Assembly (NCBI GenBank): GCA_964515615.1
Contig: CAZEVI010000001.1
Location: forward strand, 17,535-57,728
Direction of reading: 5' to 3'
From: an uncultured Candidatus Saccharibacteria bacterium
GTDB taxonomy: Bacteria; Patescibacteriota; UBA1384; XYA2-FULL-43-10; CAINNR01
Length of the DNA stretch: 40,194 nt
Of the stretch, positions 543 to 37,682 are shown in pieces. Position 1 is the stretch's first letter; each line of letters begins with the position of its first letter. The position numbers and the translations under genes were made by a program. The notes below the pieces were generated by a model. It worked only from the letters and a program-made list of their open reading frames with translations, was not told the DNA's origin and ran no database searches.

Positions 543-1523
543 CTAATCCAAAAACAGAGTTGAAATTGACCCATCGTTTTCGATAGCTTTAATTGCTTCC
601 GCAATAAGCGGAGACATTTTCAGTATCTCGATCTTCAATCGAGATGTCTGTAATTTTTCTGGCGGATGATAAAGTGAATCGGTAATAATGACTCTGTTTA
701 TGCCGCTATCATCAAGTTTTTTTATTGCCTCGCCTGAAAAAAGACCGTGAGAAGCAAAAACCGATACAGATGCCGCACCGTTGTTCAGAAGTGCGTCCGC
801 AACACGACAAGTTGTTCCGCCGGTATCGATCATATCGTCGGGGACAAGAACATGAAAACCTCTGACATCGCCAACAACCTCAATCTGATTTACAACATTT
901 GGTTGAGGTCGACTTTTGCTACAAATCGCAATCGGAGTATCGAGACCAAGCAAATCGCGCCATTTTTTCGCTCGCGCAACACCGCCGACATCCGGAGAAG
1001 CAACCATGTCAACCAACACATTTTGTTTAATGTAAGGAACGGCAAATTGTGAGGCGTACAAATGTTCAACTCGCGTTCCAAAGAGAATAAATGTTGAAAG
1101 AATAGCACTGGAATGAACATCAAAAGTAACGACATGATTTATCGGAACTGGGCTACACAAAGATTGAATATGCAAAGCCGCAGAATCGGCTTCACGCCCA
1201 TTAACCCGATCTTGACGAGAGTAACCCAAATATGGGATTACTAATTTTGGCGTTGCTCCGGCACGAAATACTGCACCAGACAAAAATCTGATTTGATCGG
1301 CATTAAATGCTGGTTGACAAGTTGAACCAATAATGTAAGCTGATTTACCGCGGATTGATTCTGGTATTTTTACATGAATCTCTCCGTCGGCATAATCGCC
1401 ATCGGGTCGGGCATTAATCACTTTCACATTGAGTATTTCACCGATTCTGTACGCAAGATGGCTGCCAGAATCGGCAAAAAGAATCGTGATGTTTCCCGGA
1501 TCAAATTCGCTCAAGACGAACAC
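543..1523 (-). CDS. prs: Ribose-phosphate pyrophosphokinase (PRPP synthase)
   Basis: 326 aa with hallmark Prs motifs: IPYLGYSRQDR, and the PRPP-binding loop VLVPDDMIDTGGT. The track start is GTG 1523. TTG at 1514, 8 nt after GGGAGG, is an equally plausible start. Confidence 0.9.
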   Translation of the reverse strand: MFVLSEFDPGNITILFADSGSHLAYRIGEILNVKVINARPDGDYADGEIHVKIPESIRGKSAYIIGSTCQPAFNADQIRFLSGAVFRAGATPKLVIPYLGYSRQDRVNGREADSAALHIQSLCSPVPINHVVTFDVHSSAILSTFILFGTRVEHLYASQFAVPYIKQNVLVDMVASPDVGGVARAKKWRDLLGLDTPIAICSKSRPQPNVVNQIEVVGDVRGFHVLVPDDMIDTGGTTCRVADALLNNGAASVSVFASHGLFSGEAIKKLDDSGINRVIITDSLYHPPEKLQTSRLKIEILKMSPLIAEAIKAIENDGSISTLFLD

Positions 1524-1650: not shown

Positions 1651-2697
1651 TTAGAACATCTTTTTGAAAAAAGCCAAAATCCCCTGTTTCCAGGGAACGC
1701 GGTGAGAAACTCCGCTTCGGCCTTCGATATTTTTAATATTTTTTAGATACCATTTGAAATTTCTCAGGAGAGCATCTTTATTTGAATATTTTGGAGCAAA
1801 CCCAAGAATTTTTTTCGCTTTATCGATCGACACGAAAGAATCTTTCGATGCTGTTTCATAAACCCATTTGTAAAGCGGTGAAAGATGCAACATTTCTAAA
1901 AATCGTAGTGACCAGATCATCGGACCCGCCGGAAGCGCCTTAATCTTCTTGCCAAAACCGGCGAAATCCAAAACCGCCTGATAGTCCTCTTTCATTGTTG
2001 TAAATTCCTCAGCGCCAATGTTAAAAACATCATTAACTTTTCGCGACGGCAATGTTAAACAAAGAAAAATTGATTCGCAGAGGTCTTCGACATCTAAAAG
2101 CTGATAACGATTTTTTCCACTGCCGATCATTGGAAAACCGTGGCCATCTTTCGCCCAATCGTAGAAAAGAGCAAAAACACCTAACCTCTCTGGGCCAATG
2201 AATGATTTTGGCCGAATTATTGGAACGACCAAACCTTTTTTTCGAGCTCTTTGACACTCCTTTTCAGCGGCAATTTTGGCTTCACCGTACGGCCCGACAC
2301 CATCTAATTTGTCATCTTCGAAAAGCGGATGATGATCGGGGATGCCGTAAACCGCCGTCGATGATATTTGAACAACGCGCTTAATTTTATTTTTGATCGC
2401 TGCGTTTAAAACATTTCTGGTTCCTAAAATATCAGTTGAATAAATATCTTCTTTTGAATAAAGCGGCAAGGCGGCAGCGGTGTGGACAACCAGATCACAG
2501 CTAGCCATCGCCAATTCAAGATCATTGTTATTTCGAATATCGCCGTAGATCGCTTGAATTTTATATTTTTCCGGATAATCGAACGGTAAAATGTCAAAAG
2601 AAACAATTTCAAAACCGCGATCCGAAAGATAACGAATCAGATTAATGCCCAAAAATCCCGACCCTCCGGTAACAAAAACTTTTTGCTTCTTCTCCAT
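1651..2697 (-). CDS. NAD-dependent epimerase/dehydratase (extended SDR family)
   Basis: 348 aa. N-terminal Rossmann motif VFVTGGSGFLG and catalytic YGEAK (YxxxK). Substrate cannot be assigned from sequence. Confidence 0.85.
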   Translation of the reverse strand: MEKKQKVFVTGGSGFLGINLIRYLSDRGFEIVSFDILPFDYPEKYKIQAIYGDIRNNNDLELAMASCDLVVHTAAALPLYSKEDIYSTDILGTRNVLNAAIKNKIKRVVQISSTAVYGIPDHHPLFEDDKLDGVGPYGEAKIAAEKECQRARKKGLVVPIIRPKSFIGPERLGVFALFYDWAKDGHGFPMIGSGKNRYQLLDVEDLCESIFLCLTLPSRKVNDVFNIGAEEFTTMKEDYQAVLDFAGFGKKIKALPAGPMIWSLRFLEMLHLSPLYKWVYETASKDSFVSIDKAKKILGFAPKYSNKDALLRNFKWYLKNIKNIEGRSGVSHRVPWKQGILAFFKKMF

Positions 2698-2709: not shown

Positions 2710-4320
2710 CTATTTTAATTTTTTAAGTATCAAACACCAAACCTGTATAAAAATGTTGGTTTTTTTGTCGACGTATTCGGTTAATTTTAATGATTTAACC
2801 AGTTCCGACTTGCTTTGAAAATCACCGATTATATTAATTACTCTTCCAAGTTCGGTTGACAGATGGGCATCAGCACCGGCAATCATCGCTTTATTATTTT
2901 TCTCCGCCAGACCACGAGCAAATTTATCTGTTGAAGAAAATAAATTCCGGCCGTTGAAAACTTCAACAATATCAATGTTATGAATAATTTTCTCCGCCGT
3001 TTCACAACTAACCGCCGACCGACGAATTTTATCACCCGGATGAGGCAAACAAACTATCCCTCCCTGTTCTCGAATTTGACGAATTGTTTCTCCGATCATT
3101 TGGCCCCTCTCAATCTTTCGATTTAGAAACAAACCGATAATTTCACCCTCAAGAGTTTTAATCTCCTCACCGATAATAACATTCGGATTGCCATTTGCCA
3201 ATTTTTTTATCTCTAAGGCACCGTAAATTTCGTTGTGATCGGTAACTGCTAACTGCTTAATCTTCTGCTGTCGGCAAAAATCAATAATTGTTTGATAATC
3301 AAGCCAACCATCATTTGACGCTTTGGTGTGCAAGTGGAAAAGAAATTTAATTTTACCTTTTGGCACTTTCTGAGTGTCAGTTTCAGTTTTCCGATCGTAG
3401 CGTTTTTCAGCCAATAGAAGGAAAATAAGCCCGATAATTACTGCAAACCAAAGTGTTACCACCCGAATTAAAATAGTTGCGAACGCTGCGGTTCCGCTCT
3501 CAATCGACAGCAGTTTCAAAAGTCCGGCAATTGTGCCATCAGTAACTCCAAGACCACCCGGAAGCATTGCCACCGCTCCCAAAATCGTCGAAAAGCAATA
3601 AACGAAAAATGCCGCAAAAACGCTAACTTTCAATTTTAAAATAACCAGAATAAAATAAAAATCAACCGCCTCGAAAGACCATGCAATCAATGCAACCAGT
3701 GTTGGAAAAATCAGCCTTTTTGGTTGTAAAAGTTCGTAGGATGTTTCATAGACTTCAATAATTCGCTCGGCATGAGGCGCCAGAAATTTTATTCTGCAAA
3801 GAAGATTAAAAAACTTCAATCCGATCGGTCGAATTAGAATTGCGGCAATGATAATTAAAATTAGCAGAAAAACAGCCCAAATTACTTTGCCACCGTAAGA
3901 AAACCCCCAGGAACCGACTCCGGCCAAAATTAGAAATGCGATTAAGTCCGAAAGCCGATCGGCGAAAACGATCGGCGCTGTTCTGGAAACAGGAGTACCA
4001 AAACCCTTTTTTAGGAAATAGGACTTGACTACCTCACCGAGTTTTCCCGGTGTAATTGTCAACGACAAACCGGAGATAAAAATGATAAACGAATCGACTG
4101 GTGGAATTTTGATTTTCAAAAGTTTCAAATAATACTGCCATTTTATAAAACGGATCAGATAGTTCAGAAAAACAATTAAAAGCAGTAGCGGCAAAAACAC
4201 CCAAGAGAAATGGGAAAATGCTCCGAAAAGCCCACTGGCACTCCCCCAAATGGCAAGAGCTAAATAGACCACCGCCGCCAAAACCAAACCATAAATTATT
4301 TTTTTAGAGATATTTTTCAT
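2710..4320 (-). CDS. Fusion protein: N-terminal lysyl-PG-synthase-TM/UPF0104 flippase-like polytopic domain plus C-terminal PHP-family phosphoesterase domain
   Basis: The N-terminal ~330 aa are strongly hydrophobic and carry LSLTITPGKLGEVVKSY and MLPGGLGVTDG motifs typical of the LPG_synthase_TM family. The C-terminal ~210 aa carry PHP metal-ligand motifs: FHLHTKASNDG, AVTDHNEIYG, LPHPGD, GADAH. I start at ATG 4320 because it overlaps the UbiA gene stop as ATGA (4317-4320). The track ORF extends to 4359. Confidence 0.75.
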   Translation of the reverse strand: MKNISKKIIYGLVLAAVVYLALAIWGSASGLFGAFSHFSWVFLPLLLLIVFLNYLIRFIKWQYYLKLLKIKIPPVDSFIIFISGLSLTITPGKLGEVVKSYFLKKGFGTPVSRTAPIVFADRLSDLIAFLILAGVGSWGFSYGGKVIWAVFLLILIIIAAILIRPIGLKFFNLLCRIKFLAPHAERIIEVYETSYELLQPKRLIFPTLVALIAWSFEAVDFYFILVILKLKVSVFAAFFVYCFSTILGAVAMLPGGLGVTDGTIAGLLKLLSIESGTAAFATILIRVVTLWFAVIIGLIFLLLAEKRYDRKTETDTQKVPKGKIKFLFHLHTKASNDGWLDYQTIIDFCRQQKIKQLAVTDHNEIYGALEIKKLANGNPNVIIGEEIKTLEGEIIGLFLNRKIERGQMIGETIRQIREQGGIVCLPHPGDKIRRSAVSCETAEKIIHNIDIVEVFNGRNLFSSTDKFARGLAEKNNKAMIAGADAHLSTELGRVINIIGDFQSKSELVKSLKLTEYVDKKTNIFIQVWCLILKKLK

Positions 4321-5186
4321 TGGGCAATAAAATAAATAATTAAAATACTTCCTAGCCAAAGAAGCATATCGATAATTAACGGAATGTCGTGAAAAAATAC
4401 TGCCACCGGATCTCCGCCTTCGCGCTTGTTGTAGAGCAAATGAAAATAACGGAAAATACCAAAAACCACCAACGGGGTCGTGTAAATTAGGTTGTCGGTT
4501 CGAAAGTTGGTTTGAGTTTGCGGATCAATCGTATAGAGCGAATAGGAGATGACCGAAACTCCGGCAGTCAGCACCAATATTTGGTTAATAAAACTTTCAG
4601 TGTAGTCGCTAATTGATTTTCGATGCCCAGTTTTATCAACCGTCAAAAGCTCCATCTCGTTTTTCCTTTTGCCAAAAGCCAAAAACAACGCAACAAAAAA
4701 AGTGCAAAGCAAAAGCCAATGTGTCGGGTTCAACGCCAAAGCTTCAGCGCCAACAAACACTCGCAGAACAAAACCGAAAGCAATTATCATTACATCAACT
4801 ATCGGCAAATTTTTCAAACCGAATGAATAAAACAGGTTAACAATAAAATATCCAATGCAGAGATAGAAAACAGTTGCCCCAAGATAGGTTGACACAGCAA
4901 AAGCGGCGGTTAAAACAATGATGAACTCCAAAAAAGCCGGCCAGGTTTTAATCTTCCCCGAAGCGATCGGTCGGAAACATTTTTTGGGGTGTAATCGGTC
5001 GCGCTTTTGATCGAAAATATCATTGATAATGTAAATTGAACTGGCAAAAAGCGAAAAAACACCGAAAGCCAAAAAAACGCGATAAAAACTTTCCAAATCA
5101 AATTTGAAGGCAAAAATCAGCGGAAAAAAGACTAAGATATTTTTCAACCAATGTTTCGGTCGGCAAAGCTGAATATAAGCTAACAT
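4317..5186 (-). CDS. UbiA-family prenyltransferase, decaprenyl-phosphate 5-phosphoribosyltransferase-like (polyprenyl-P + PRPP)
   Basis: 289 aa, polytopic. RPKHWLKN...YIINDIFDQKRDRLHPKKCFRPIASGKI matches the NDxxDxxxDxxHPxKxxRPxASG signature of the Rv3806c/NoeC subfamily rather than quinone or heme prenyltransferases. Confidence 0.75.
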   Translation of the reverse strand: MLAYIQLCRPKHWLKNILVFFPLIFAFKFDLESFYRVFLAFGVFSLFASSIYIINDIFDQKRDRLHPKKCFRPIASGKIKTWPAFLEFIIVLTAAFAVSTYLGATVFYLCIGYFIVNLFYSFGLKNLPIVDVMIIAFGFVLRVFVGAEALALNPTHWLLLCTFFVALFLAFGKRKNEMELLTVDKTGHRKSISDYTESFINQILVLTAGVSVISYSLYTIDPQTQTNFRTDNLIYTTPLVVFGIFRYFHLLYNKREGGDPVAVFFHDIPLIIDMLLWLGSILIIYFIAQ

Positions 5187-7345
5187 TTTTTCCTCTTTAT
5201 AATGCAGTAAATAAGATATATTAATGAAACGAAAATTGCGAGCCAGCTGATCAGACCACCATATTTGAGACTTTTTGGCTCAAATTTCATAATTATGGAG
5301 TGGCTACCTGCAGGAACCTCGATTGCCTTAAAAGTAAAATCAGCTCTTAGCAACTCCGTTTTTTTGCCATCGACATAAGCATTCCACCCAGGATACCAAT
5401 TATCAGAAATGAAAAGCAGGGTCGGCACATTTGTTTCAATTTTTGAGAAGATTATTATATCATTCGATTCATTTTCAATTTTAACGGCGTTTACATTAGA
5501 AGAAGATGTCATTCCATTACCATGAAGTAGCATAACCGGAGATTTTTCTAATATTATATAATCTGAACCGCTGAAATCGGGATTTGTCATCTGTTGATAG
5601 ATTTCTTGGTCATTGTCTAAAACTTTGTACAAATTCAAAGTAAAAGCCCGCGGTAGGGGTTGACCATCAATAGGCGCAGCCGCCAAACGATACAGCGCGT
5701 GATTTTTTTCCGCCATCTCCAAGTATATTTTATACCGGTAAATTGATGCGCCGCTAATATCAATTCCCGAATTGTTGTACGAAATCAAACTGAAATCGCG
5801 AGATATATAATTTGAATTGGCACTAAACTTTTTCCAATCTAGATTACTCATCCTCGGGCTATTTTTATCACCATTAATTTTTATGCATGAGAATAATGGC
5901 CATTGGCATTTATTAATTTCTCCGAATTGATCGAGAGAATATGAAGCAAGATGATAATTAAAATTAACGTTGTAAACCCTAAACAAATCAAAAACCAGAA
6001 TCAAGGAAACAAGAATCACAAATGTTTTTTGCGTTAAATAATGGTTGACAAAACCAAAAAGCATAACGACAAAAATCGAGAATATTAGGATTGTTGCCGA
6101 AAAGTCGTCAAATATTCCGGATTGGCCAGTGGTGGAAACCAAAAATACGATTGCTAAAAAACCTAAAATTAAATAAATCATTTTAATTATTGCATAATCT
6201 CTTTTTTTAAATACAAAATTCTGGATTGAACTGCATACAAGAAATATAGTCGGGAGGTAGAGAAATTGTATAATACGGCTATAAAATCTTAAATTGTTTA
6301 ATATCGGCAGTTGGGTAATCAATACCTGAGAAAAAGAATCAACGAGCGCAAAAAGAATCATTGAAACAGATAATAAAAGATACCAAAACGAATATTTATC
6401 ACGAGTAATTATTGACCTAGTGATAAAAAAAATAATAATTGGGCCAAAATATAAGTAGTCCCACAAATGTTCATATGCGTTGCGGGAAAAAAACAACACT
6501 CCGAATATATCGTCGTATCGCAGAGACCAAAACTTTAAGTAGTCGGAATTTACAAAGTGGCTTCTAACCATTAATTGACTGAATTCAAGCGAAGGTAACA
6601 ATATAATTGCCGAATACAAGCCTGTCCAAAAAACTAATTTTATCCAAGGAAAAAATAAATTTTGAGACGAGTCGCCCTTTTTAACAGAAATTGCGTAGCC
6701 CCAAGGGAGCAAAAAAATTAAGGCGTATATAGCTCCTTGGGGAAAAGTCGAGAATTGTTGAAAAATAACAAAGGCACAAAGGAATAAAAAGATTGATTTT
6801 TTCTGACAAAGATATTTCTCGTAAAATAACATTGAAAGTGGCACCAAAGCCGTAGCCTGTGTAACGGTTACCCATGGGTTAGCAGACCACCCACAAAACA
6901 TAAATAACATCCCGCCGAATATCGACAAAGTAATAGACAATTTTCTCCAGCGCAAATAAAGATAAGTTGAAAATCCAGCCAAAGCCAAATGTACCAGATA
7001 AAATAACTGGTAAATATTAATACTAATTAAATCGTGTCCTCTAATAACTTTTAGCAGATAGTTTGGCAAATAATAATTCCCAACTTGCAGTAAGTTTGGA
7101 CTACCGGAACTGGCAAAGAAGTTCCAATGTGGAATATGCAATGATTTAAAAGAAAAATTCGATAGCAAGAAGTTAATATCCGGCAGATACATATGCACCA
7201 TATCTTCAGAAATATACTTTTTCGCAAAATCACTCACCAAAAATAAACTGTAGTTGCTGACCATAGAAAGCAAAACAAAAAACATAGCTACGGTTACAGT
7301 AACAGCCAATCTCGATTTGAAAATTTTAATAAACTTTATTACCAT
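5180..7345 (-). CDS. YfhO-family GT-C membrane glycosyltransferase
   Basis: 721 aa with a polytopic N-terminal two thirds. The C-terminal DNWYPGWNAYVDGKKTELLRADFTFKAIEVPAGSHSIIMKFEPKSLKYGGLIS plus a terminal TM helix is the characteristic YfhO C-terminus. Confidence 0.7.
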   Translation of the reverse strand: MVIKFIKIFKSRLAVTVTVAMFFVLLSMVSNYSLFLVSDFAKKYISEDMVHMYLPDINFLLSNFSFKSLHIPHWNFFASSGSPNLLQVGNYYLPNYLLKVIRGHDLISINIYQLFYLVHLALAGFSTYLYLRWRKLSITLSIFGGMLFMFCGWSANPWVTVTQATALVPLSMLFYEKYLCQKKSIFLFLCAFVIFQQFSTFPQGAIYALIFLLPWGYAISVKKGDSSQNLFFPWIKLVFWTGLYSAIILLPSLEFSQLMVRSHFVNSDYLKFWSLRYDDIFGVLFFSRNAYEHLWDYLYFGPIIIFFITRSIITRDKYSFWYLLLSVSMILFALVDSFSQVLITQLPILNNLRFYSRIIQFLYLPTIFLVCSSIQNFVFKKRDYAIIKMIYLILGFLAIVFLVSTTGQSGIFDDFSATILIFSIFVVMLFGFVNHYLTQKTFVILVSLILVFDLFRVYNVNFNYHLASYSLDQFGEINKCQWPLFSCIKINGDKNSPRMSNLDWKKFSANSNYISRDFSLISYNNSGIDISGASIYRYKIYLEMAEKNHALYRLAAAPIDGQPLPRAFTLNLYKVLDNDQEIYQQMTNPDFSGSDYIILEKSPVMLLHGNGMTSSSNVNAVKIENESNDIIIFSKIETNVPTLLFISDNWYPGWNAYVDGKKTELLRADFTFKAIEVPAGSHSIIMKFEPKSLKYGGLISWLAIFVSLIYLIYCIIKRKKC

Positions 7346-7359
7346 CGTAATGTTATTTT

Positions 7360-9396
7360 TTATTTATTACCTTTGTACTCGCAACCTAAAAAATTTATCC
7401 TTGCGTTGTTTGCATCAAAGCCTTTTTTGCTTCCGGTAAAAATATTATAATTTTTATGGCTGGTGAAAGGAAAATTGTTTTCCAGATAAATTTTAACTTC
7501 GCTACCCGCCAACTGGCTGAAAGCGACTTTTAATTCCCCAGGATTCAATTGTAAATAATTTGTTAAAATAAATTTTTGCTGTCCACTAACAATTTTTATC
7601 TTCGATTTTGACTCAAGATTGAAATTTAGAAGACAAATTGAATTGTCGCTGATAATCGAATGAAATGCTAGCACCTTTTCGTTCGGTTGATCACTGTAAA
7701 CATTTTTGGCAAGAATTTTCATCGATGTTAAATTTTTGGTCGAAGTAATCTCAAAAATCGGTTTCGCCTTGTTGAATTTATATTCGAGGAGATAATTATC
7801 AACATTCAAATCCGGATAGATTTTTTTATCCAAATTGCTGAAAATCGTTAAAAGGTCGGTGTGAAGTTGTTGCGCTTTGATTAAGTTAACTAAGTAATCT
7901 TGACTGGCAACCGTCCCCGAAGAATCGATAAAAAATTGATTCTCTTCTTCACCAATTTTGTGTTTTTTGACAATTATTTTCTGCTCGTTTGAATGATCAA
8001 AAGCATCGGTAACAAAAACGTCGTCGGGGCTTTTGGGGGAAGATTTTTGATCGATTATTTTTGAAAAATAATCGGACGCCAAAGAAAGATCTCCTTCAAA
8101 TTGCGGCAGATAATAGCAAAATTGAACAACCATGGCCGAGATGACAATGATTAAATAGCAGCGATAAGCAGCTATCTTTTGGTAGTTCAAAATCGCCAAA
8201 GCGGCTAAAATCGAAATTGGAAGATAGAGCGGAACAAAAAAGCGGCCGTCAACAAAGCTAAGTACAATCATAAAAATATAAGGAACCAACCACCAAAGAT
8301 GCCATTTATTTTTCAAAAATAGTATTCCCAAAAGTGCCAAAAACAAAATTAAGAAAAAATAAATCTCAATCATCAATCGCCAAAAGTACTGGCCGAAAAA
8401 TCCGAGATTGCCAACATTGTAAACTTCGTTGTAGACATATGAATTTGGCAAGAATAAATTTCTGATTTTTGAAAAAGCAAGTTTGGCAAATTTTAGCGGA
8501 TTTTTGGCGATCCAATGATCGGCCAATTTTTTGTAATTTTTATCGGAGAGATATTCGTTATCGGTTTTAACCACGTTGCCGGACACTAGATAACCGGTCG
8601 GCGGAAATGCGGCGTTGTTGCCATTTAGGACATACGGGTTGTTTCCCAAAAGCATATTCACGCCGCCATTGGTTGAAACTAAAACCGGACCACCCGTAGC
8701 GATCGATGAACGAATCGACCAAAAGAGAACCGGCAAAATCGCAAAAAATATTAAGATAAATTTCAGATATTCAAACTTGTGAAATTTGAAAAAATGATAA
8801 ATAAATACTAGAGGAATTATTAAAAGATAAATTAAATAGGTTGGACGAGTTAGTATTAACCAACCAAACAAAAGTCCAGAGATAATTACTAACAGCGGAT
8901 TTTTTCTCTCCCGACCCAAAAAATAAAAATAAAAGGCGCCGATGATAAAAAATTGGGAGATTGATTCGGTCCAAAGACTGTTGTTCATAAAGTAAATTAC
9001 CGGGTTCAAAAGATATATAACGATTACCAACTGTGCAACGCGATCGGAAAAAAATCTTTTGACAATGCTGAAAAACATTATAATCGAAATCAAAAACAAT
9101 CCGATTTGAGAGAGAACAGCCAGTTGCCACTTTCCCGAGATTGAGTAAATTATCGCCAAAAAAATCGGCAGACCCGGCGGACGATAAGCTGTTAGTATCC
9201 AATTTCCTTCTGAATCTTTATTTTCAGCGTAAACGTGATATTTGGCCAAATTGCTTCCAAGAATTTGATAATTTATCGGATCATTCGGGTGAGCGTAGGG
9301 ATTATTTTTCAAATTCAAAAACAACACCACAGATAAAACGGCGGCAACAACCACCACACAAACCAGAAACCAATTAATTTTGATTGTTTTTTTCAT
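7360..9396 (-). CDS. ArnT/PMT-like (GT39/GT83-type) GT-C glycosyltransferase with ~250-aa C-terminal extracytoplasmic domain; paralog A
   Basis: 678 aa. N-terminal TM, then YRPPGLPIFLAIIY, LLFGWLILTRPTYLIYLL and STNGGVNMLLGNNPY. Clearly paralogous to the next gene along its full length. Confidence 0.7.
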   Translation of the reverse strand: MKKTIKINWFLVCVVVVAAVLSVVLFLNLKNNPYAHPNDPINYQILGSNLAKYHVYAENKDSEGNWILTAYRPPGLPIFLAIIYSISGKWQLAVLSQIGLFLISIIMFFSIVKRFFSDRVAQLVIVIYLLNPVIYFMNNSLWTESISQFFIIGAFYFYFLGRERKNPLLVIISGLLFGWLILTRPTYLIYLLIIPLVFIYHFFKFHKFEYLKFILIFFAILPVLFWSIRSSIATGGPVLVSTNGGVNMLLGNNPYVLNGNNAAFPPTGYLVSGNVVKTDNEYLSDKNYKKLADHWIAKNPLKFAKLAFSKIRNLFLPNSYVYNEVYNVGNLGFFGQYFWRLMIEIYFFLILFLALLGILFLKNKWHLWWLVPYIFMIVLSFVDGRFFVPLYLPISILAALAILNYQKIAAYRCYLIIVISAMVVQFCYYLPQFEGDLSLASDYFSKIIDQKSSPKSPDDVFVTDAFDHSNEQKIIVKKHKIGEEENQFFIDSSGTVASQDYLVNLIKAQQLHTDLLTIFSNLDKKIYPDLNVDNYLLEYKFNKAKPIFEITSTKNLTSMKILAKNVYSDQPNEKVLAFHSIISDNSICLLNFNLESKSKIKIVSGQQKFILTNYLQLNPGELKVAFSQLAGSEVKIYLENNFPFTSHKNYNIFTGSKKGFDANNARINFLGCEYKGNK

Positions 9397-9417
9397 CTTT
9401 GATTCGCAAAATAATTA

Positions 9418-11526
9418 TTATTCTATACTATCAAACGATAGTATCCTATTAATCTGCGCTCCGTTAATTTGAAATGCTCTTTTTTGTCCGGTGAACAAAT
9501 TGTAGTTATGCAAATTTTCAAACTCAAGATTATTTTTTAATTTGATCGCAACAGTTGTTTTGTCATTTAATTTGACAATTATTTTGAAAATCGCTCTGCC
9601 GGGAAATGTAAAATTCGTCAAGTGCAAAGTTTTATTCCCTGACCTAATGAACATTTCCGATGTTTGATCGAGCTCGGCAAATAACAGATATTGTTTATCA
9701 TCTTCGGTATTAAATCTTTTGGCTGTTTGAATTTGATCCGGCCAATCGGAAGTTGCAGGTTGACCGTCAACAATTTGAAAATTGGTTGGCAACGATTCAC
9801 TGGGAACTATTTTAAAAATCGGCCGTGAAAGTTCACTGCAATACAATAAATTATTTTGGTTTGAAATATCAGGATATTTAGTCTTGTCGATGTCAGAAAA
9901 AACCGACACTAAATCAGTATAAATCTGTCCGTGTTTGATTAAATCCAACAGTTGTTTTTGTGAAATTTCTTCTCCTTTTGAATCAAAGAAAAGCTGCTCA
10001 CCGCGACCAAATTGACCGTCTTTACAAATTACCCTTTGAAGATTGGTTTTGCAACTCGCGTCGGTGATAAAAAAATTATTCTCCACAAGGCTGACAATTT
10101 GACTATCCCGATAACTTTTGTAATATTCTCTGGCCAATACAAATTCTTTGATAATTGAAGGATAGAAAAATAGAAATTGCCAGCCAAAAATTATCAACAT
10201 CATTATCAGATATAATTTGTTAGCCGATAATTTAGAAATGTTAATAATTGCTAGCGCCGCCAGTATTGACATCGGCAAATACAACGGAATTGCAAATCGG
10301 CTGTCAGCAAAAGTTAAAATAATTATTAAAATGTATGGCAAAAGCCAGAGAAATATCCACTTGTTTTTTACAAACCGTATACCTAGTAGTGCGAAAAGGA
10401 GCAACAGAGAATAATTTATCATTTTAATCAAACAAAGAATCTCAGCCGACAACTTGCTTGCGCTGTTTTCAATTCCAAATAAATTATTGTCCGCCACAAA
10501 AAGATATTGTATTTTACTTAACGACATTTTTATAAAAAGCCGGGGGTTGCGGACAATCCAGATTGCCGCCTCCTTAGTGTCATTGCGGTCAATGTCACTC
10601 TCGCTGGAACTATTACCGGGCCCAATTCCTCTTGCCTGCAAAAAAGCAGGCGACGGCCAATTTGCCGCCCTGCCATTAATATTGTACGGATTGTTACCCA
10701 GCATATAATTGATTCCTCCGTTGGTTGAAATTAAAACCGGACTGCCACTGACTATCGTTGACCGAACAGACCAAGCCAAAATTGGAACACAAGCCCAAAC
10801 TAAAAAAATTAAAAATGATTTGTTCAGTTCCCGATTTTTCAGTCGAGCTATTATTAAATACAGAAAAAATATAAGTAAATAAATTAGAAAAGTTGGCCGA
10901 ACTAAAATTAGCCAGCCAAATAATAAGCCGGCGATGATTAAAGATAAGTATCGATGAATGTTAGCCAAGTGGTCAAAAAAGAGATAAAAATAGGCCGAAA
11001 TTATTAGTAACGAGAGCGTAACAGATTCGGTCCAAAAACTATTGTTTACTAATAGAATTGTAAAATTTGTGCCGTAAATAATAGCTGCTACGAAAGCTGT
11101 TTTCCGATCAAAATATTTTTTTATTAATTTAAATAGTAAAAAAATACTTAAAAGAAAAACCGCCATTTGCAACAAAATTACCAATTTCCAAGCATTAATT
11201 TTAACTAAATAAATTAAAGCGATAAACAGCGGATACCCCGGTGGACGAAAAGAGTTAACAATACTGCCATACGGCGAAGTATGAAAATAATGCAAATTTT
11301 TCATATTTAAAAAAAGATTTTCCGAATATCTATGAGCGGCAACCAAATTCCTTCCCAACAAATCATAAATTTTAGGGTCGTTGATCAGAGTTTGCGGATT
11401 ATTGGGGAAAAAAATAAATAACAGAATCATAATAATTAGTGGCAAAAATAAAATCACCGCAATTGCTACAAATTCAAGTTTTTTGGACTTGTTTTTTCTT
11501 TCGATTGTTGGCTTATCTTCGGCCAT
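9418..11526 (-). CDS. ArnT/PMT-like GT-C glycosyltransferase; paralog B
   Basis: 702 aa. FRPPGYPLFIALIY, LLFGWLILVRPTFLIYLL and STNGGINYMLGNNPY. The C-terminal domain shares FFDSKGEE..LLDLIK..YTDL..VFSDIDK..YPD and NYNLFTG motifs with paralog A. Confidence 0.7.
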   Translation of the reverse strand: MAEDKPTIERKNKSKKLEFVAIAVILFLPLIIMILLFIFFPNNPQTLINDPKIYDLLGRNLVAAHRYSENLFLNMKNLHYFHTSPYGSIVNSFRPPGYPLFIALIYLVKINAWKLVILLQMAVFLLSIFLLFKLIKKYFDRKTAFVAAIIYGTNFTILLVNNSFWTESVTLSLLIISAYFYLFFDHLANIHRYLSLIIAGLLFGWLILVRPTFLIYLLIFFLYLIIARLKNRELNKSFLIFLVWACVPILAWSVRSTIVSGSPVLISTNGGINYMLGNNPYNINGRAANWPSPAFLQARGIGPGNSSSESDIDRNDTKEAAIWIVRNPRLFIKMSLSKIQYLFVADNNLFGIENSASKLSAEILCLIKMINYSLLLLFALLGIRFVKNKWIFLWLLPYILIIILTFADSRFAIPLYLPMSILAALAIINISKLSANKLYLIMMLIIFGWQFLFFYPSIIKEFVLAREYYKSYRDSQIVSLVENNFFITDASCKTNLQRVICKDGQFGRGEQLFFDSKGEEISQKQLLDLIKHGQIYTDLVSVFSDIDKTKYPDISNQNNLLYCSELSRPIFKIVPSESLPTNFQIVDGQPATSDWPDQIQTAKRFNTEDDKQYLLFAELDQTSEMFIRSGNKTLHLTNFTFPGRAIFKIIVKLNDKTTVAIKLKNNLEFENLHNYNLFTGQKRAFQINGAQINRILSFDSIE

Positions 11527-13438: not shown

Positions 13439-14692
13439 CTAGCTCAACTCTTTTTTGACTTCAAGATAATTTAAAACAAAATAAGGCAAGTATGAGATTG
13501 ATGTTGCGATTGATGCACCATTGACTCCGTACTTTGGGATAAGCAGATAATTGAGCAAAATATTTGCAACAATAGTGAACGAAATGTTAATCGCTCGCTT
13601 TTTCGCCAAACCGCGAAAATCAAGGAGGGTGCTAAAAAAAACTGAATAAGAAAACATAATCAAATACGGCAAAAGAAGAATTAGCGGCATTGCCGAAGCG
13701 ACATAATTTGAGCCGTATATTTTTGGCATAAACCAATTGGCGAGCGTGATGATAATGACGGCAATTGAGAAAAATATTGCTGTGTTGGCTTTTATCAGTT
13801 TGGCAAAAATCTTTCTTAATTTTTCCCTGTTTTGATCGTCTAATTTGGCAAAAATCGGCATTGTTCCCATTGAAATGGCGATCGCCAAGTGGGGCAATTT
13901 TACGATTATCTGTTTGGCGGCGGCGTAAATCCCGACATCATAACTGGTTTTCAAGTAGCCAATCATTACCGTATCGATCTCGGTGGCAATCCAAAAACCA
14001 ATGCTGACAAGAAACAGTGGAAAGCTATAATGAATAATTTGCTTTAAATAACGATTTTGACTTTTGCTCTCCCCGCGGTAAAAATTAAAATAAACTATCA
14101 ACCCTCCGACCAAGGCGGCTAAAAATAGACTAATCACATAAGAATCAATAATAGCCGAAAGTTGAATTGAGAATTGGAAAAAAAACAAAACTAGAAAAAA
14201 TTTTAAACCGAATTCAATCGAATTGATAATAAAATTATATTTATTGAGATGCAAACCGACGAAAGCATCTTTCAAAAATTCTACTCCGCCGGAGAAAAAA
14301 ACCAGCGGTGATGAAAGCAAAAAAAGCTTAGTCAATTCCGGTCGGCTGAGTAAATTTGCCAACTCTTTGCTAAAAATTGCCAAAATAGCGGCGACACAGA
14401 AACTAAAAATAAATCTGGCTTGAAAAGCGGCCTTCAAAACCGCTTTTAACTCTCCTGATCCGCTATGTTTGGCGATGTAGGTTTTGCTCGAAGCGTTGAT
14501 GCCGAAATAGGACACCAACAATATCATTGAAAGAATTGAATAAAAAAACGACCACTGACCAAAAACCTCGACTCCTAGAACACGAGCCAGATAAATGTTT
14601 AGTGCATAAAATAAGCCAAAAGTAACGAACTTTGACAAAAAACTCCAAAAAGTTTCCTTGGCAAATTTATTTTTAAAAAATTTATTTAGCAT
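13439..14692 (-). CDS. Wzx-like oligosaccharide flippase (MOP superfamily polysaccharide biosynthesis protein)
   Basis: 417 aa, ~12 TM segments. N-terminus KETFWSFLSKFVTFGLFYALNIYLARVLGVEVFGQWSFFYS is typical of the family. Confidence 0.8.
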   Translation of the reverse strand: MLNKFFKNKFAKETFWSFLSKFVTFGLFYALNIYLARVLGVEVFGQWSFFYSILSMILLVSYFGINASSKTYIAKHSGSGELKAVLKAAFQARFIFSFCVAAILAIFSKELANLLSRPELTKLFLLSSPLVFFSGGVEFLKDAFVGLHLNKYNFIINSIEFGLKFFLVLFFFQFSIQLSAIIDSYVISLFLAALVGGLIVYFNFYRGESKSQNRYLKQIIHYSFPLFLVSIGFWIATEIDTVMIGYLKTSYDVGIYAAAKQIIVKLPHLAIAISMGTMPIFAKLDDQNREKLRKIFAKLIKANTAIFFSIAVIIITLANWFMPKIYGSNYVASAMPLILLLPYLIMFSYSVFFSTLLDFRGLAKKRAINISFTIVANILLNYLLIPKYGVNGASIATSISYLPYFVLNYLEVKKELS

Positions 14693-16674: not shown

Positions 16675-18906
16675 TTATATTTTTCTAAAAATTTCTAAAT
16701 ATCTTTGTCCAATCTTTTCCCAACGATATTTTTCAACCAGTTTGTTTTGCTTCTCAATATATTTTTTTCGAAATTTTTTGTCTTTAATCAGTTTGTTCAG
16801 ATTGCTTGACCAACGCCTTTTTTCTTCCAACGGAATTGTAAAGTCTTTGCCGTAGATTTCTTTCAAAGAACCTCGATTTGAAGATATTATCGGTACGCCG
16901 GCAGCCATAGCCTCGAGCGGAGGAATACCGAACCCTTCGTAGAGAGACGGGAAAATTGCGGCGACTGAATTTTGTAAAAGTATTGGAATCGTTGCCGGTT
17001 GACGATTTTGGTCTATTGGACCGGTAAAAATAATTCGATCAGCTAGATTATATTTCTTAGCCACCTTTTCCAGTTGACGAAAGTAGGAAATATCAGCATT
17101 TGTGTTTCCGACAAAAACAATTTTTAGCTTTGATTGTCTGAAATTCTTGAAAATTTCCAGCGAAAATATTTGATTTTTTTTCTTGCTGATTTTTGCCACC
17201 TGAATTATATAATTGCCTGCAAGTAGCTGGTATTTGTCTAATGTTTTTTTAATATTATCAACCGAATATTTTTGCAAAAAAATTTCGTTAACTCCGATCG
17301 GAATTATATTGATCTTTTCTTTTTTGTAACCTTCACTGATCAAATCTTTTTTATCGTTTTTAGAAACGGCGATAATTTTATCGGCAACCAAAGAAGCGAC
17401 TCGACCGATAACCCGCCAATAAATTCTAACCGGCAGCGAAATGCTTTGGTCAAATTTATATATCATTCCGTGAACGGTGGTAATGATTTTTTTGCCGGGT
17501 AATTTATAAAAACAACTTGAACTTTTGGGATAAAATATTACTTTGGATCGGTTTTTTATTGCTAAGTATGGAATAATTAAATTATCCCAGAAAAAATTAT
17601 TTTTAACTTGCGAAAAATTAATTTTGACATTTTCAGCACGAAAATAATTCAAATATTTTTTATTATTAACAACTAATTGGATCTTTAAATTTTTCTCTTT
17701 GGCAAGCTCAAGCAACAAATTGTAAAGATAGTTTGAAGCACTTGATCCCTCTCGAATGAACGCCCGACCGTCAATGGTAATCCTTCGCGTCGGAAATCTG
17801 TAATAATTAAAATATTGCTCGGCTGCCAATTCCCAACTTAACAATTCGGCAATAATTTCTGATTGCCTCCCATACGCCGCGATCAACTTACGATTTTTAA
17901 GATAGTAGTTGACTTTTCCTTTTAAATCCCTAATTGAACCCTTTTTGACAATGAAACCGTTTCCTTCTATTAATTTTCGACTTCCACCGGTGTCAGTGAC
18001 AATAATCGGCAAACCGCAAGCCATCGCTTCTAAAATCGAGTTACTCATTCCTTCATTTAGCGACGGCAAAACGAAAATGTCAGCTGCCTGCAAGTATTTG
18101 ACGATATTTTTATGATCGACTTCGCCGGCAAAATTGACATTGACTTGATATTTTTTAGCCAATTCTTTCAGTTCGTTGCTCATATTACCGCCGCCGACCA
18201 AAGTCAATTCGATATTTTTTAAGTTTTTTAACGCCGGAATTAGAAACTGATAACCCTTGCGGGCAATCAATCGGCCGGTGGAAATTAATCTGATTTTTTT
18301 ACCTAGCGTTTTATTTTTCGGCGGTTTGAATTCTTGGGTGTCAATACCATTGGTGATTACTTTTATTTCCCCCGAAAACGATCGCTGAGCCAGTTTTCGC
18401 AAGTCATTGGAGTTGGCGATCACCAATTTTGCTTTTGACCAAATACGCCGGCTCAAACGGCCAAAAATCAGTTTGTCCAATTTCTTAAACCGCGGATTGT
18501 AAAACGGCACATCGCTACCGCGTAAAGAGACAATGTATGGTAAACCAAGTTTCATCGCAATATAACCACAGGGAATTCCAAAAAATGCATGGACTAAATT
18601 AAATTCTTTTTCACCGGCTAATTTCTTAGCGTAGCGATAGGCTCGCCAACTATATTTTAAGAGATCAATGTTACTCTGGTAGTGAATATCGCCTTTTTTA
18701 CCAATGTCGAGATAATGAATTTTGATATTTTTGGAAAATTTTTTAATTTTAAAAATGCCGGTTGAACTGGTAATTAGATCGATCTCCAAATTTTTCATCT
18801 TTGAAAATTCACTAAACAGATATTTTGTTGCATTGCCGGCACCGCCGCCTAGTGGCGGAAATTCATAATTCAGAAATAAAATTTTGATCTTCTCATTTTT
18901 TGTCAT
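16675..18906 (-). CDS. Tandem double GT4 (GT-B fold) glycosyltransferase fusion
   Basis: 743 aa. The first module has KILFLNYEFPPLGGGAGN and EGMSNSILEAMACGLPIIVTDTGG. The second module (from about aa 375) has EGFGIPPLEAMAAGVPIISSNRGSLKEI. Confidence 0.85.
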   Translation of the reverse strand: MTKNEKIKILFLNYEFPPLGGGAGNATKYLFSEFSKMKNLEIDLITSSTGIFKIKKFSKNIKIHYLDIGKKGDIHYQSNIDLLKYSWRAYRYAKKLAGEKEFNLVHAFFGIPCGYIAMKLGLPYIVSLRGSDVPFYNPRFKKLDKLIFGRLSRRIWSKAKLVIANSNDLRKLAQRSFSGEIKVITNGIDTQEFKPPKNKTLGKKIRLISTGRLIARKGYQFLIPALKNLKNIELTLVGGGNMSNELKELAKKYQVNVNFAGEVDHKNIVKYLQAADIFVLPSLNEGMSNSILEAMACGLPIIVTDTGGSRKLIEGNGFIVKKGSIRDLKGKVNYYLKNRKLIAAYGRQSEIIAELLSWELAAEQYFNYYRFPTRRITIDGRAFIREGSSASNYLYNLLLELAKEKNLKIQLVVNNKKYLNYFRAENVKINFSQVKNNFFWDNLIIPYLAIKNRSKVIFYPKSSSCFYKLPGKKIITTVHGMIYKFDQSISLPVRIYWRVIGRVASLVADKIIAVSKNDKKDLISEGYKKEKINIIPIGVNEIFLQKYSVDNIKKTLDKYQLLAGNYIIQVAKISKKKNQIFSLEIFKNFRQSKLKIVFVGNTNADISYFRQLEKVAKKYNLADRIIFTGPIDQNRQPATIPILLQNSVAAIFPSLYEGFGIPPLEAMAAGVPIISSNRGSLKEIYGKDFTIPLEEKRRWSSNLNKLIKDKKFRKKYIEKQNKLVEKYRWEKIGQRYLEIFRKI

Positions 18907-23905: not shown

Positions 23906-25031
23906 CAATAATTTTTTGGAAGTAATCAATTGTCCGTTTGCTAACGGCATTTATTGCGTACTTCTCTTGTACCAGTTTATAGCCCCCGTTTGCAAGTGTT
24001 TTAGCTAATTTGGAGTTTGACAGAAGCTTTTTCATTGCTTGCTGCAAATCCGTTTTTCGCGGCTTAACCAGAATCGCTTCTTTGTCCCCGATAACTTTTG
24101 GAATCTCTCCCATTTTAGTAGCAATAATCGGTTTCCTCATTGACATTGCTTCCAAAAGCGACCTAGCGGTTGTGGCATGATAAGTAAACGGCAGAACAAT
24201 CAAATCGGCAGCCGCCAGATATTTGGGAATTTCACTTAGCGGAACAAACTCCATAAAATCAATATATTTTTGCAGTTTAAGTTCGATAATCCTTTTTTCC
24301 AACAAATCTCTCTGCTCACCGGAACCAAAAAGAATTTTGGTCTCCGATTTCTTCGGCATTAAAGCAAATGCTTCTAACAGTAGTTCGGCTGATTTGCGAT
24401 TGTATTCGTACATTGGTTTGGCAAAAACTATTAGTTTTTTTGCTTCGCCAATGTATTTTTTTCGGATCTCTCGGCCGGAAACTTTCGGATTAAAAAGTTC
24501 TAAATTGATACCTCCGGGAATAAAGGACACTCGTTTTTGGCTAATTCCCCATTTTTTAAGATATCGATTAAAGTGATAATGAGACCAGCAAACAAAACCG
24601 TCAATCGACTTTCTGGTAAAGAGAAATTTCTGCAACCGATTAAAAATTTTGTCTCTGAAAGATTTTTCAACTTCATTAATTATCTCAACCGTAACCACCA
24701 ACGGTTTTTTTAATTTTGACCTTAAAAAAATGCCGGCGGGAATTCCTCTGGCACAGATAACATTGATAATATCGGCTTGAATTTTTCCTAATCGCACGAA
24801 ATGAAAAATAATTGAAAAATTAAAAATGATATCGGTTATAAATGGAATTTTAGATCCCCTGACCCAAACAATCTCCAAATTTTTCGGTTTTTTGAATTTA
24901 GAACCCTTGGGGCTGTAAGTCGCAAAAAGCGTTACCTTTTCCGCTCTTTCGCAAAAAGCGTCAATCTGCTCTTGAATGTAGGAACCATTTTCATATAAAG
25001 GATATTGATAATATACGGCAACAATCTTCAT
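23895..25031 (-). CDS. GT4 glycosyltransferase
   Basis: MKIVAVYYQYP..., LLEAMSMRKPIIATKMGEIPKVIG. ATG 25031 overlaps the upstream stop as ATGA (25028-25031). Confidence 0.85.
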   Translation of the reverse strand: MKIVAVYYQYPLYENGSYIQEQIDAFCERAEKVTLFATYSPKGSKFKKPKNLEIVWVRGSKIPFITDIIFNFSIIFHFVRLGKIQADIINVICARGIPAGIFLRSKLKKPLVVTVEIINEVEKSFRDKIFNRLQKFLFTRKSIDGFVCWSHYHFNRYLKKWGISQKRVSFIPGGINLELFNPKVSGREIRKKYIGEAKKLIVFAKPMYEYNRKSAELLLEAFALMPKKSETKILFGSGEQRDLLEKRIIELKLQKYIDFMEFVPLSEIPKYLAAADLIVLPFTYHATTARSLLEAMSMRKPIIATKMGEIPKVIGDKEAILVKPRKTDLQQAMKKLLSNSKLAKTLANGGYKLVQEKYAINAVSKRTIDYFQKIIDEF

Positions 25032-26791: not shown

Positions 26792-26802
26792 TTGATTGGA
26801 TT

Positions 26803-27951
26803 TTAGCTTTTCTCGATGATTCGCAATTCCTTCTCGACAATCGCCTGCCATCGATACTGTTCTATCACATTTTCACTCTTTGCCACAAATTTTGCTTGCA
26901 GAGATTTCGATTCCAAGATTTTAATTGTCTCTTTGGCAAATTGGTTTGGGTTAGCAATTTTCGCTTCAACGACAGCGCCGGCAAAAACTTCTCTGTAAAC
27001 TGGCAAATTCCAGGCGACAACCGGAAGACCGCAAGCAAAAGCTTCGGCGATAACAATGCCAAAACCTTCTTCATGACTGGGAAAAACAAAAAGATTGGAT
27101 TCTTTTAATATTTTGTAAGCTTTGTCGTTCGGCAAAAATCCGAGAATTTCAGCATTTTTCGAAAGGCCGAGCTTGGTGAACTGATTCTTTAATTTTAATT
27201 TGACTTCGTCGCTACCGCCACCGATAATTTTTAATTTTGCCGTTGGAATTTTTTTGACAACTTTGGCCCAAATTTCCGGCAAGTCAAAAATCCCCTTCGA
27301 CGGCATCAATCTTGCCAGAAAACAGGCTTGATACCTTTTTTTCGCCGCTTTAATTTTTCGAAAATATTCCAAATCAATTCCACAAGGGTTAATGACAATT
27401 TTATCCTTCGGAATTTGATATTTGGAAATTAGATTGTCTCGGACTTGATAATTGACATTGATAATTTTGTCGGCTTTTTTGATTCTGGCCAGTGAAAAAT
27501 CCTGAATCTTCGAACCGACAATGTTTCGAATTTTACTGCCCGGCCGAACTCGCCAATTTGGGTAAATATGGAAAACGCAAGCGATCCATTTGGTTTTAGG
27601 ATTGTCGGATTTATACTGATAGGCGGGTAAAACATCCGGGAAAAAATCTGATGATGAATAAATGTAGTCATAGTGATGATTTTTCAACTTTTTTATCAAC
27701 CAATTCGACCTCCGCCGATAGCGGAGAAAAATATTGCCTTTTTCAAATTCTTTCGGCGAAATGTAAAAAGTCGCCGATTTTATCTCTTCGGCAATAATTT
27801 TTTTACCATCGGCTGATGTGTAAATATCAATTTGGAAATTCTTGCCGATTCGCTTAAAAATTTGCATCAACCGCTGATCACCGCCGGAAATTCCGGCGCC
27901 GGCATTCCAAAAAGAATTTACCAACAAGGCAATTTTTGCATTCTTATTCAT
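26803..27951 (-). CDS. GT4 glycosyltransferase
   Basis: 382 aa. VFPSHEEGFGIVIAEAFACGLPVVAWNLPVYREVF. Confidence 0.85.
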   Translation of the reverse strand: MNKNAKIALLVNSFWNAGAGISGGDQRLMQIFKRIGKNFQIDIYTSADGKKIIAEEIKSATFYISPKEFEKGNIFLRYRRRSNWLIKKLKNHHYDYIYSSSDFFPDVLPAYQYKSDNPKTKWIACVFHIYPNWRVRPGSKIRNIVGSKIQDFSLARIKKADKIINVNYQVRDNLISKYQIPKDKIVINPCGIDLEYFRKIKAAKKRYQACFLARLMPSKGIFDLPEIWAKVVKKIPTAKLKIIGGGSDEVKLKLKNQFTKLGLSKNAEILGFLPNDKAYKILKESNLFVFPSHEEGFGIVIAEAFACGLPVVAWNLPVYREVFAGAVVEAKIANPNQFAKETIKILESKSLQAKFVAKSENVIEQYRWQAIVEKELRIIEKS

Positions 27952-37670: not shown

Positions 37671-37682
37671 TTCTTCTTTCAA

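Follow-up and report, generated by a model that had tools for sequence, protein, structure and literature searches.

A rare fusion of an MprF-like membrane domain with a PHP phosphoesterase in a putative lipid-pentose cassette of a Candidatus Saccharibacteria genome

The stretch of DNA analysed here, 40,194 nucleotides of contig CAZEVI010000001.1 (assembly GCA_964515615.1) that we refer to as the window, comes from an uncultured Candidatus Saccharibacteria bacterium whose genome (G000; 0.70 Mb, 97% complete) has a size typical of the candidate phyla radiation (CPR) and which can be described as a Berkelbacteria-like organism of the groundwater type. The minus strand of the window carries at 4320..2710 an uninterrupted gene for a protein of 536 aa in which an MprF-like membrane domain of the LPG_synthase_TM/UPF0104 type (hereafter TM) is joined to a PHP phosphoesterase domain. 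A sequence-only reading of the window had placed this gene at 2710-4359, and such an open frame does exist on the minus strand as the longest one of the ORF listing (4359..2710, 549 aa), starting with TTG, but the likely start is the ATG at 4320-4318, 13 codons past it. Homologues begin at the same MKNIS[KR]K… point as the protein read from this ATG (MKNISKK...), and therefore the gene was taken as 4320..2710. The ATG overlaps the TGA (4319-4317) of the upstream phosphoribosyltransferase gene as ATGA, as had been proposed, and through this overlap the fusion gene is translationally coupled to that gene, a member of the UbiA family.

Translation of the frame revealed neither a stop nor a frameshift at the TM/PHP junction, and the motifs picked out earlier were all located in the protein: TPGKLGE (residues 90-96), PGGLGVTDG (254-262), HLH (329-331), TDHN (360-363), HPGD (427-430) and DAH (484-486). 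The Pfam matches, LPG_synthase_TM at residues 9-297 (E 9e-41), PHP at 328-390 (2e-7) and PHP_C at 468-512 (5e-7), agree with the claim that one ORF joins both domains. Three parts can be told apart: the LPG_synthase_TM/PplT flippase-like domain (residues 1-315, 3376..4320), recognized by PF03706, TIGR00374 and its superposition on MprF; a basic low-confidence linker (…TETDTQKVPKGK…; residues 311-322, 3355..3390), whose predicted local distance difference test score (pLDDT) drops to 58 in the block 311-320; and the PHP plus PHP_C metal-dependent phosphoesterase (residues 323-536, 2713..3354), supported by Pfam, by a model of the domain and by structure matches. The same fused gene is found, with 65% identity, in a second genome of the same family (G005), and a search of 5.8 billion proteins retrieved from independent assemblies seven more full-length fused proteins of 50-66% identity, including one annotated as Candidatus Berkelbacteria. 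Because G005 and these independent assemblies carry it, the fusion is no assembly artefact, and the open frame together with these homologues rules out a frameshift or a missed stop at the junction. The earlier concern that two genes might have been read as one thus fails at this locus; the two-gene form is the ancestral state, met in relatives. The TM::PHP fusion is rare, being seen in about eight protein clusters and in 2 of 61 related genomes.

The fusion gene lies within a same-strand run that, in the order of transcription, comprises two PMT_2/ArnT-like GT-C glycosyltransferases, a YfhO-like GT-C, the UbiA-family gene, the fusion gene, a short-chain dehydrogenase/reductase (SDR), a phosphoribosyl pyrophosphate (PRPP) synthetase and a GHMP-kinase-like gene truncated by the contig end. 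The UbiA gene (4317..5186, minus strand; PF01040) scores 276 bits against NF008977 (cut-off 234) and so passes the NCBIfam equivalog cut-off for decaprenyl-phosphate phosphoribosyltransferase; its 289-aa product, a polyprenyl-phosphate 5-phosphoribosyltransferase of the decaprenylphosphoryl-5-phosphoribose (DPPR) synthase type, consists of the UbiA domain only, with no HAD phosphatase domain. Downstream of the fusion gene, and also on the minus strand, are an extended SDR of the NAD-dependent epimerase/dehydratase family (1651..2697; PF01370, E 2e-38), a candidate lipid-pentose epimerase, and a ribose-phosphate diphosphokinase (543..1523; TIGR01251, 225.7 bits, cut-off 113) that would supply PRPP as donor. 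Upstream, the YfhO-like membrane GT-C (5180..7345, minus strand; C-terminal match to PF09586), a likely user of the lipid-pentose, overlaps the start of the UbiA gene, and it is preceded by the two tandem PMT_2/ArnT-like GT-C genes (7360..11526, minus strand; 678 and 702 aa, PF13231), a homologue of which adjoins UbiA in G005.

The membrane half of the protein is assigned with confidence to its family, scoring 140.7 bits against PF03706 (cut-off 33.4) over profile positions 2-302 of 302, and 91.7 bits against the NCBIfam model TIGR00374 'flippase-like domain' (cut-off 43.2). The model of bifunctional MprF (NF033480) was not reached, with 41.2 bits against a cut-off of 600 and a match limited to positions 28-320 of 841. 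An AlphaFold2 model of the whole protein, computed from an alignment of fused and TM-only homologues (pLDDT 88.5), predicts six full-length transmembrane helices and two re-entrant helix-loop-helix hairpins whose tips are formed by the conserved motifs TPGKLGE and LPGGLG. VIA-align superimposed residues 17-318 of this model on residues 49-350 of Pseudomonas aeruginosa MprF (9goe_A) with Z 22.1 and a root-mean-square deviation of 4.4 Å over 276 residues; further matches were 9j8s, 6lvf, 7f47 and 7duw. In the conservation counts, for which the TM and PHP domains were aligned separately, the charged intramembrane residues K93, E96, R122, D125, E217 and R286 proved to be invariant among 53 homologues. 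The loops hold 23 lysines plus arginines on the inside and 4 on the outside in an N-in/C-in arrangement, and the PHP homologues encoded as separate genes begin at the first β-strand without a signal peptide; on these grounds a cytoplasmic location is predicted for the PHP domain, the side of the membrane being a point that the sequence-only reading had suggested examining. The cytoplasm is also where PRPP and NAD are located. The active site of UbiA enzymes faces this same side (PMC11127046).

The PHP half scores 31.8 bits against PHP (PF02811, cut-off 26.4) and 29.5 bits against PHP_C (PF13263, cut-off 21.3). Modelled alone it reaches a pLDDT of 96, and Foldseek matches it to solved PHP enzymes with E values of about 1e-11. 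The entries retrieved by Foldseek and VIA-align (3e38, 2anu, 3o0f, 9etk, 7ug9 and 2yb1; Z 16-20) place BVU_3505, TM0559, BAD_1165, RNase AM and the pAp phosphatase Cv1693 as its nearest solved relatives (Z 16-20). In an alignment with 3e0f, 9etk and 2anu its ligand residues match the HxH, DH, GxEI, H and DxH motifs of these enzymes, and ten positions (H329, H331, S335, H362, E386, H427, E453, N456, D484 and H486) are invariant in 104 PHP homologues, with D337 and D361 conserved as well. The earlier statement that the domain has all the His/Asp metal-ligand motifs holds for the motifs it quoted but not for the complete site: one canonical metal-binding histidine, the H of 'EVWH' in 3e0f, is the invariant Asn456 in this subfamily, a substitution that weighs against the catalytic role proposed below. 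The domain ends in a conserved, amphipathic and basic helix (residues 523-535) which may serve as an anchor at the membrane interface. Apart from that of DnaE, no other PHP domain was found in the whole genome; Pfam detected no PAP2 match in the fusion protein, and the sole PAP2-like gene of the genome is unlinked and below the cut-off (26.9 bits).

The link between these domains and the phosphoribosyltransferase rests on the way the genes travel together in relatives. Strong matches to UbiA, TM and PHP coincide in 5 of the 61 genomes of the class (G000, G005, G019, G021 and G052), to which a sixth (G043), cut at a contig edge, can be added. In all of them the cassette genes are neighbours in a variable arrangement, and across the 61 genomes TM and PHP genes occur only where there is a UbiA gene, and always beside it. 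The order is UbiA-TM::PHP-SDR in the two genomes with the fused gene (G000, G005) and UbiA-TM-PHP-SDR in G019, where the TM stop and the PHP start are a few bases apart in different frames; it is UbiA-DUF362-TM-PHP in G021, and UbiA-TM-SDR-PHP in G052, in G043 as far as its contig reaches, in an uncultured bacterium (L019) and in a metagenome contig (L137). UbiA-PHP-TM is seen on another contig (L174), UbiA…TM-PHP in a metagenome-assembled genome (MAG) of the Chloroflexota (L049), and the series UbiA, ABC1 kinase, DUF362, TM, PHP and GT87 in the cultured Negativicute Sporomusa sp. KB1 (L023:3838-9868, NZ_VLKC01000001.1). Thus the cassette recurs, split or fused, in CPR bacteria, Sporomusa and Chloroflexota. 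Genes that keep together while their order changes, and that exist both separately and fused, classically mark a functional module, and we therefore regard these genes as one. The SDR is its most conserved member (69-78% identity in relatives), and it is kept beside TM/PHP in G005, G019, G052, G043, L019 and L137. A DUF362 gene stands between UbiA and TM exactly in the modules devoid of SDR, that is, in the Berkelbacteria genome G021 (L018:5913-7010) and Sporomusa (L023:5857-7032); its product may be an alternative pentose-modifying enzyme.

Since the split state is the widespread one, the fusion has to be considered as derived, and the linker coincides in position with the site where split relatives have a stop and a new start. 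Judging from the sequences compared, the fusion is a recent, lineage-specific joining of two formerly neighbouring genes. In the PHP tree the module members from CPR bacteria, 11 in number, cluster in a single clade with good support, where fused proteins are interspersed with split ones. The fused forms do not make up a single clean clade, as P0007 groups weakly (support 85) with split forms. In all five genomes with an apparently unlinked PHP of the subfamily, a UbiA of the NF008977 type is encoded at another place; it exceeds the cut-off in three of them, and none of the 14 control genomes reaches this value.

We lean, on balance, towards a reading in which the PHP domain takes the 5-phosphate off polyprenyl-phosphate-ribose-5-phosphate and the membrane domain passes the resulting lipid-pentose outward to the GT-C enzymes. 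Its support is comparative, and the flippase half is less well backed by it than the phosphatase half. This is also the interpretation that the sequence-only reading had preferred, and it fares best in the light of the UbiA equivalog, the recurring cassette, the cytoplasmic PHP domain and the MprF fold (Z 22). The fusion protein would thus be an inner-membrane protein with two functions in a pathway for polyprenyl-phosphate-pentofuranose donors. The PRPP synthetase of the operon would make PRPP, and the UbiA enzyme, as its equivalog-level homology suggests, would move ribose-5-phosphate from it onto polyprenyl phosphate at the cytoplasmic face. From the genomic context it can be proposed that the PHP domain, which the fusion and its C-terminal amphipathic helix would keep at the membrane on the cytoplasmic side, hydrolyses the 5-phosphate monoester by means of its His/Asp/Glu metal cluster; its closest enzymes RNase AM and Cv1693 split phosphate esters carried by ribose, which we count in favour of this role. 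The adjoining SDR would epimerise the pentose before or after dephosphorylation, and the MprF-like domain, by analogy with MprF and AglD-type proteins, may carry the polyprenyl-phosphate-pentose to the outer leaflet for use by the YfhO-like or PMT_2-like GT-C. MprF-like domains have been found fused to lipid-head-group enzymes, AglD among them (PMC5898192; bioRxiv 10.1101/2022.03.11.483950). It is tempting to speculate that joining a phosphatase to an exporter would make sense if the SDR worked on the lipid while it still bears its 5-phosphate, so that no cytoplasmic step followed dephosphorylation.

A bolder version of this proposal, which we hold with distinctly less conviction and offer as tentative, is that PHP represents a third non-homologous family of polyprenyl-phosphate-ribose-5-phosphate 5-phosphatases after PAP2 and HAD, and that MprF/PplT is a true flippase of polyprenyl-phosphate pentofuranose donors, both united in a 'dephosphorylate-and-flip' machine by which export is tied to the final step in the cytoplasm. 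If true, it would point to a class of candidates for the flippase of donors of the decaprenylphosphoryl-ribose (DPR) and decaprenylphosphoryl-arabinose (DPA) type, which is still a matter of dispute.

Beyond the cassette, much of the comparative evidence weighs against so specific a role for these domains. The DPPR-synthase type of UbiA is widespread in the phylum, where 52 of 251 sampled genomes have it, but the 29 best other UbiA loci of Patescibacteria all lack both partners within 1.5 kb, and a strong PHP of the subfamily is present in only one of ten other UbiA-bearing Patescibacteria genomes. The idea that every such UbiA of the phylum pairs with TM and PHP was accordingly discarded (0 of 29 loci; 1 of 10 genomes for the PHP subfamily), and, because those other loci are without both partners, the partnership with UbiA must be viewed as lineage-restricted. 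Among the closest PHP loci (33-45% identity), 75 of 80 have neither UbiA nor TM within 8 kb, those of Dehalococcoidia lying among genes for elongation factor P, an M24 peptidase, XseA and a dehydroquinase. About 70 of the 80 closest TM loci similarly have neither partner and are found in housekeeping contexts, and a Maf-like gene lies upstream at a median of 8 bp in 55 of the 80 (L098-L177, e.g. L126:7415-7993). The sequence-only reading had named as damaging to its proposal an architecture that is common and linked to unrelated pathways; the fusion itself turned out to be rare, whereas its single domains do occur mostly in unrelated contexts. A fair summary is that TM, PHP and UbiA form a lineage-restricted yet repeatedly re-assembled partnership and no universal rule.

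Some further observations concern these outlying loci. Standalone TM homologues with 38-44% identity are often followed by YtxH and DUF948 genes, and the view that the TM subfamily is generally linked to glycans was ruled out by these Maf, YtxH and DUF948 housekeeping neighbours. The usual neighbours of UbiA in L180-L208 are Bac_transf, GT4, MraY/WecA-like (Glycos_transf_4), RuvX and YceG, with no recognisable phosphatase nearby. A class relative (L178; G055:C2:14000-32000) has a divergent DPPR-synthase-type UbiA (36% identity) with two SDR genes, a double methyltransferase and a 132-aa ORF without family; no TM or PHP partner was found beside UbiA at this locus, and a different phosphatase/flippase solution must exist there.

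The housekeeping surroundings of the standalone TM homologues favour an alternative for the membrane half, namely that PHP is indeed the lipid-pentose 5-phosphatase while the MprF-like domain acts as an anchor, a substrate-presenting scaffold or a non-specific scramblase, and the donor is exported by a Wzx/MOP protein, GtrA or another factor. Other candidate exporters are at hand, and their presence speaks against the flippase role proposed above: two Wzx-like/Polysacc_synt genes of the MOP superfamily (13439-14692 and 36396-37682) lie in the window 9 kb and 32 kb off, a GtrA domain is contained within a 746-aa ORF on another contig of the genome, and either kind of protein could do the flipping instead. 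Moreover, P. aeruginosa MprF is described as a promiscuous scramblase (PMC11980842). Against this alternative, TM stays in the cassette through permutations of gene order and in distant phyla, and it pairs with UbiA where PHP is missing, in L142 and L154. Its intramembrane charged residues are invariant, and it is encoded by the sole LPG_synthase_TM gene of the whole 0.70-Mb genome. We therefore judge this alternative unlikely, albeit worth keeping in sight.

The lipid itself could also be another one. TM-PHP pairs occur without UbiA in the fetched flank (up to 8 kb) in L061 and L098, where the pair could act on a different lipid, and this, like the other contexts of the PHP subfamily, counts against a dedicated pentose pathway. 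In Solirubrobacterales the PHP domain forms a fusion with a GT4, and the gene neighbours are Ino1, a CDP-alcohol phosphatidyltransferase and PAP2_3; in Dehalococcoidia it sits in the housekeeping context mentioned above, and the linked PHPs of Chloroflexota nest among unlinked ones in the tree. It could thus be argued that TM-PHP works on some other phosphorylated lipid head group, for instance of the phosphatidylglycerol-phosphate or phosphatidylinositol-phosphate type, so as to make and flip a glycerophospholipid, the proximity to UbiA reflecting a shared regulation of envelope genes. We consider this rather improbable, since within the class TM and PHP come only with UbiA and always beside it, the UbiA and fusion genes are translationally coupled through ATGA, the CPR proteins form a clade of their own in the PHP tree, and even the genomes with 'unlinked' PHP still carry an NF008977-type UbiA elsewhere.

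The PHP subfamily in other bacteria deserves a comment of its own. In one Solirubrobacterales MAG (L066:3796-8708) a 660-aa GT4::PHP protein with C-terminal PHP is encoded directly after PAP2_3, a 210-aa CDP-alcohol phosphatidyltransferase and myo-inositol-1-phosphate synthase, and Ino1 is found upstream at 17 loci of the subfamily. This Thermoleophilia set looks like a phosphatidylinositol-phosphate (or di-inositol-phosphate-phosphate) synthase, a phosphatase and a glycosyltransferase. Because GT4::PHP adjoins Ino1 and the CDP-alcohol transferase there, it can be speculated that the subfamily may act generally on 'lipid-P-polyol-P' intermediates. Further architectures include PHP::SAM-methyltransferase and several GT4::PHP (P0139, 525 aa; P0136/P0229/P0265), the partners being in all cases glycan- or lipid-modifying enzymes.

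The best sequence and fold matches of the PHP domain (RNase AM, BAD_1165, TM0559 and Cv1693) invite the suggestion that it acts on nucleotides or RNA as a phosphoesterase, or drives the UbiA reaction forward as a pyrophosphatase, and that its attachment to the membrane has nothing to do with the 5-phosphate of a lipid sugar. This is quite improbable in our opinion: identity to the solved enzymes of the TrpH/RNase AM type is only 14-26%, the subfamily is shorter than they are (about 215 aa), with its own invariant set and the amphipathic C-terminal helix, it occurs in fusions with membrane or glycan enzymes (TM, GT4, methyltransferase), and the pathway would otherwise be left with no phosphatase. 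Finally, the alternative offered by the sequence-only reading, a CpsB/YwqE-like protein tyrosine phosphatase regulating polysaccharide assembly, has the presence of a PHP superfamily member in a large glycan locus in its favour and is nevertheless very improbable, given the lack of any CpsB family match in Pfam or NCBIfam, the position of Cps4B (2wjd) at rank 45 in VIA-align with Z 8.3 versus Z 17-20 for proteins of the TrpH/RNase AM/TM0559 type, and the fact that the window ORFs scanned, to which this search was limited, contain neither a Wzz domain nor the bacterial tyrosine kinase (BY-kinase) that had already been noted as missing.

Outside the run of genes around the fusion, the window is occupied by a large glycan locus with GT2 and GT4 glycosyltransferases, a pyruvyl transferase, methyltransferases and a sugar nucleotidyltransferase. 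Other fusions are encoded in it, namely a GT2::SDR epimerase of 574 aa (34659-36383), a GT2::methyltransferase of 607 aa (25028-26851) and a double GT4 of 743 aa (16675-18906), and a B12-binding radical SAM protein is found at 29712-31274.

The kind of pathway proposed here is known (mycobacterial DPA; Kelly et al. 2024); the fusion is rare, real and built from unusual parts. No paper that connects a PHP enzyme or an MprF-type domain with a lipid-pentofuranose pathway came up in our literature search, and among the partners mentioned in the accessible part of a survey of PplT, which covers 148 architectures, there are glycosyltransferases, kinases, HAD proteins and others, but PHP is absent. 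Envelope glycans that are essential or antigenic, such as the mycobacterial arabinan, side chains of O-antigens and the arabinosylation of pilins, are built from lipid-linked pentofuranose donors, and the removal of the 5-phosphate and the flipping of the donor are poorly defined steps outside model organisms. The natural fusion together with the split forms constitutes Rosetta-stone evidence tying PHP and the MprF-type domain to the pathway, and provides concrete, clonable candidates for both steps. It would also widen the proposed substrates of PplT/MprF flippases from glycerophospholipids to polyprenyl-phosphate sugars, and suggests that even the ultra-small CPR genomes invest in lipid-pentose chemistry for their envelopes. 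Experiments could be feasible, the cultured Sporomusa sp. KB1 with its split module being a possible host.

Several known systems share features with the one described here. TrpH/YciV (RNase AM), BAD_1165, TM0559 and Cv1693 have the same fold as its PHP domain, with the HxH, DH, E, H and DxH motifs, but differ from this subfamily in their greater length, in the canonical histidine that is replaced here by Asn, and in having neither the amphipathic end helix nor the membrane and glycan links. The lysyl-phosphatidylglycerol synthase/flippase MprF has the same membrane fold and likewise places a cytoplasmic head-group-modifying enzyme at the C-terminal end of the flippase domain; in the protein of the window, however, there is no aminoacyl-phosphatidylglycerol synthase domain and no TM9-14, the partner is a phosphatase, and the presumed lipid is a polyprenyl phosphate sugar rather than a glycerophospholipid. 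Closer in this last respect are the archaeal AglD-type proteins (Makarova et al. 2015, PMC5898192), which combine an MprF-like (UPF0104) domain with an enzyme of polyprenyl-phosphate sugars and for which flipping of the product has been predicted, although their partner is an N-terminal GT2 dolichyl-phosphate sugar synthase instead of a C-terminal phosphatase, and their sugar a hexose from a nucleotide-sugar donor.

With regard to the pathway, the mycobacterial DPA route (Rv3806c, Rv3807c, DprE1/DprE2 and Rv3789) follows the same course from PRPP to polyprenyl-phosphate-ribose-5-phosphate, and on to dephosphorylation, epimerisation, flipping and use by GT-C enzymes. Its phosphatase Rv3807c belongs to the PAP2 enzymes and Rv3789 to the GtrA/SMR-like proteins (PMC11127046), in the places that would be taken here by PHP and the MprF-like domain, and epimerisation involves the flavoenzyme DprE1 together with DprE2, whereas the cassette has a single SDR and no DprE1. 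The three-component pentofuranose system of Citrobacter youngae O1/O2 (Kelly et al. 2024, PMC11127046) likewise relies on a UbiA-type phosphoribosyl synthase that uses PRPP and on a 5-phosphatase physically fused to a membrane component, with an SDR epimerase that diversifies the pentose (ORF13 epimerises Ribf to Xylf; PMC11127046) and with a flippase and a GT-C encoded alongside. In the window this last position corresponds to the YfhO-like and the two PMT_2-like GT-C genes, directly upstream and in the same direction. The Citrobacter flippase is of the MATE type and its phosphatase is a HAD-family PRP domain carried by the UbiA synthase, while in the Saccharibacteria protein a PHP domain is carried by the putative flippase, an MprF-like LPG_synthase_TM domain.

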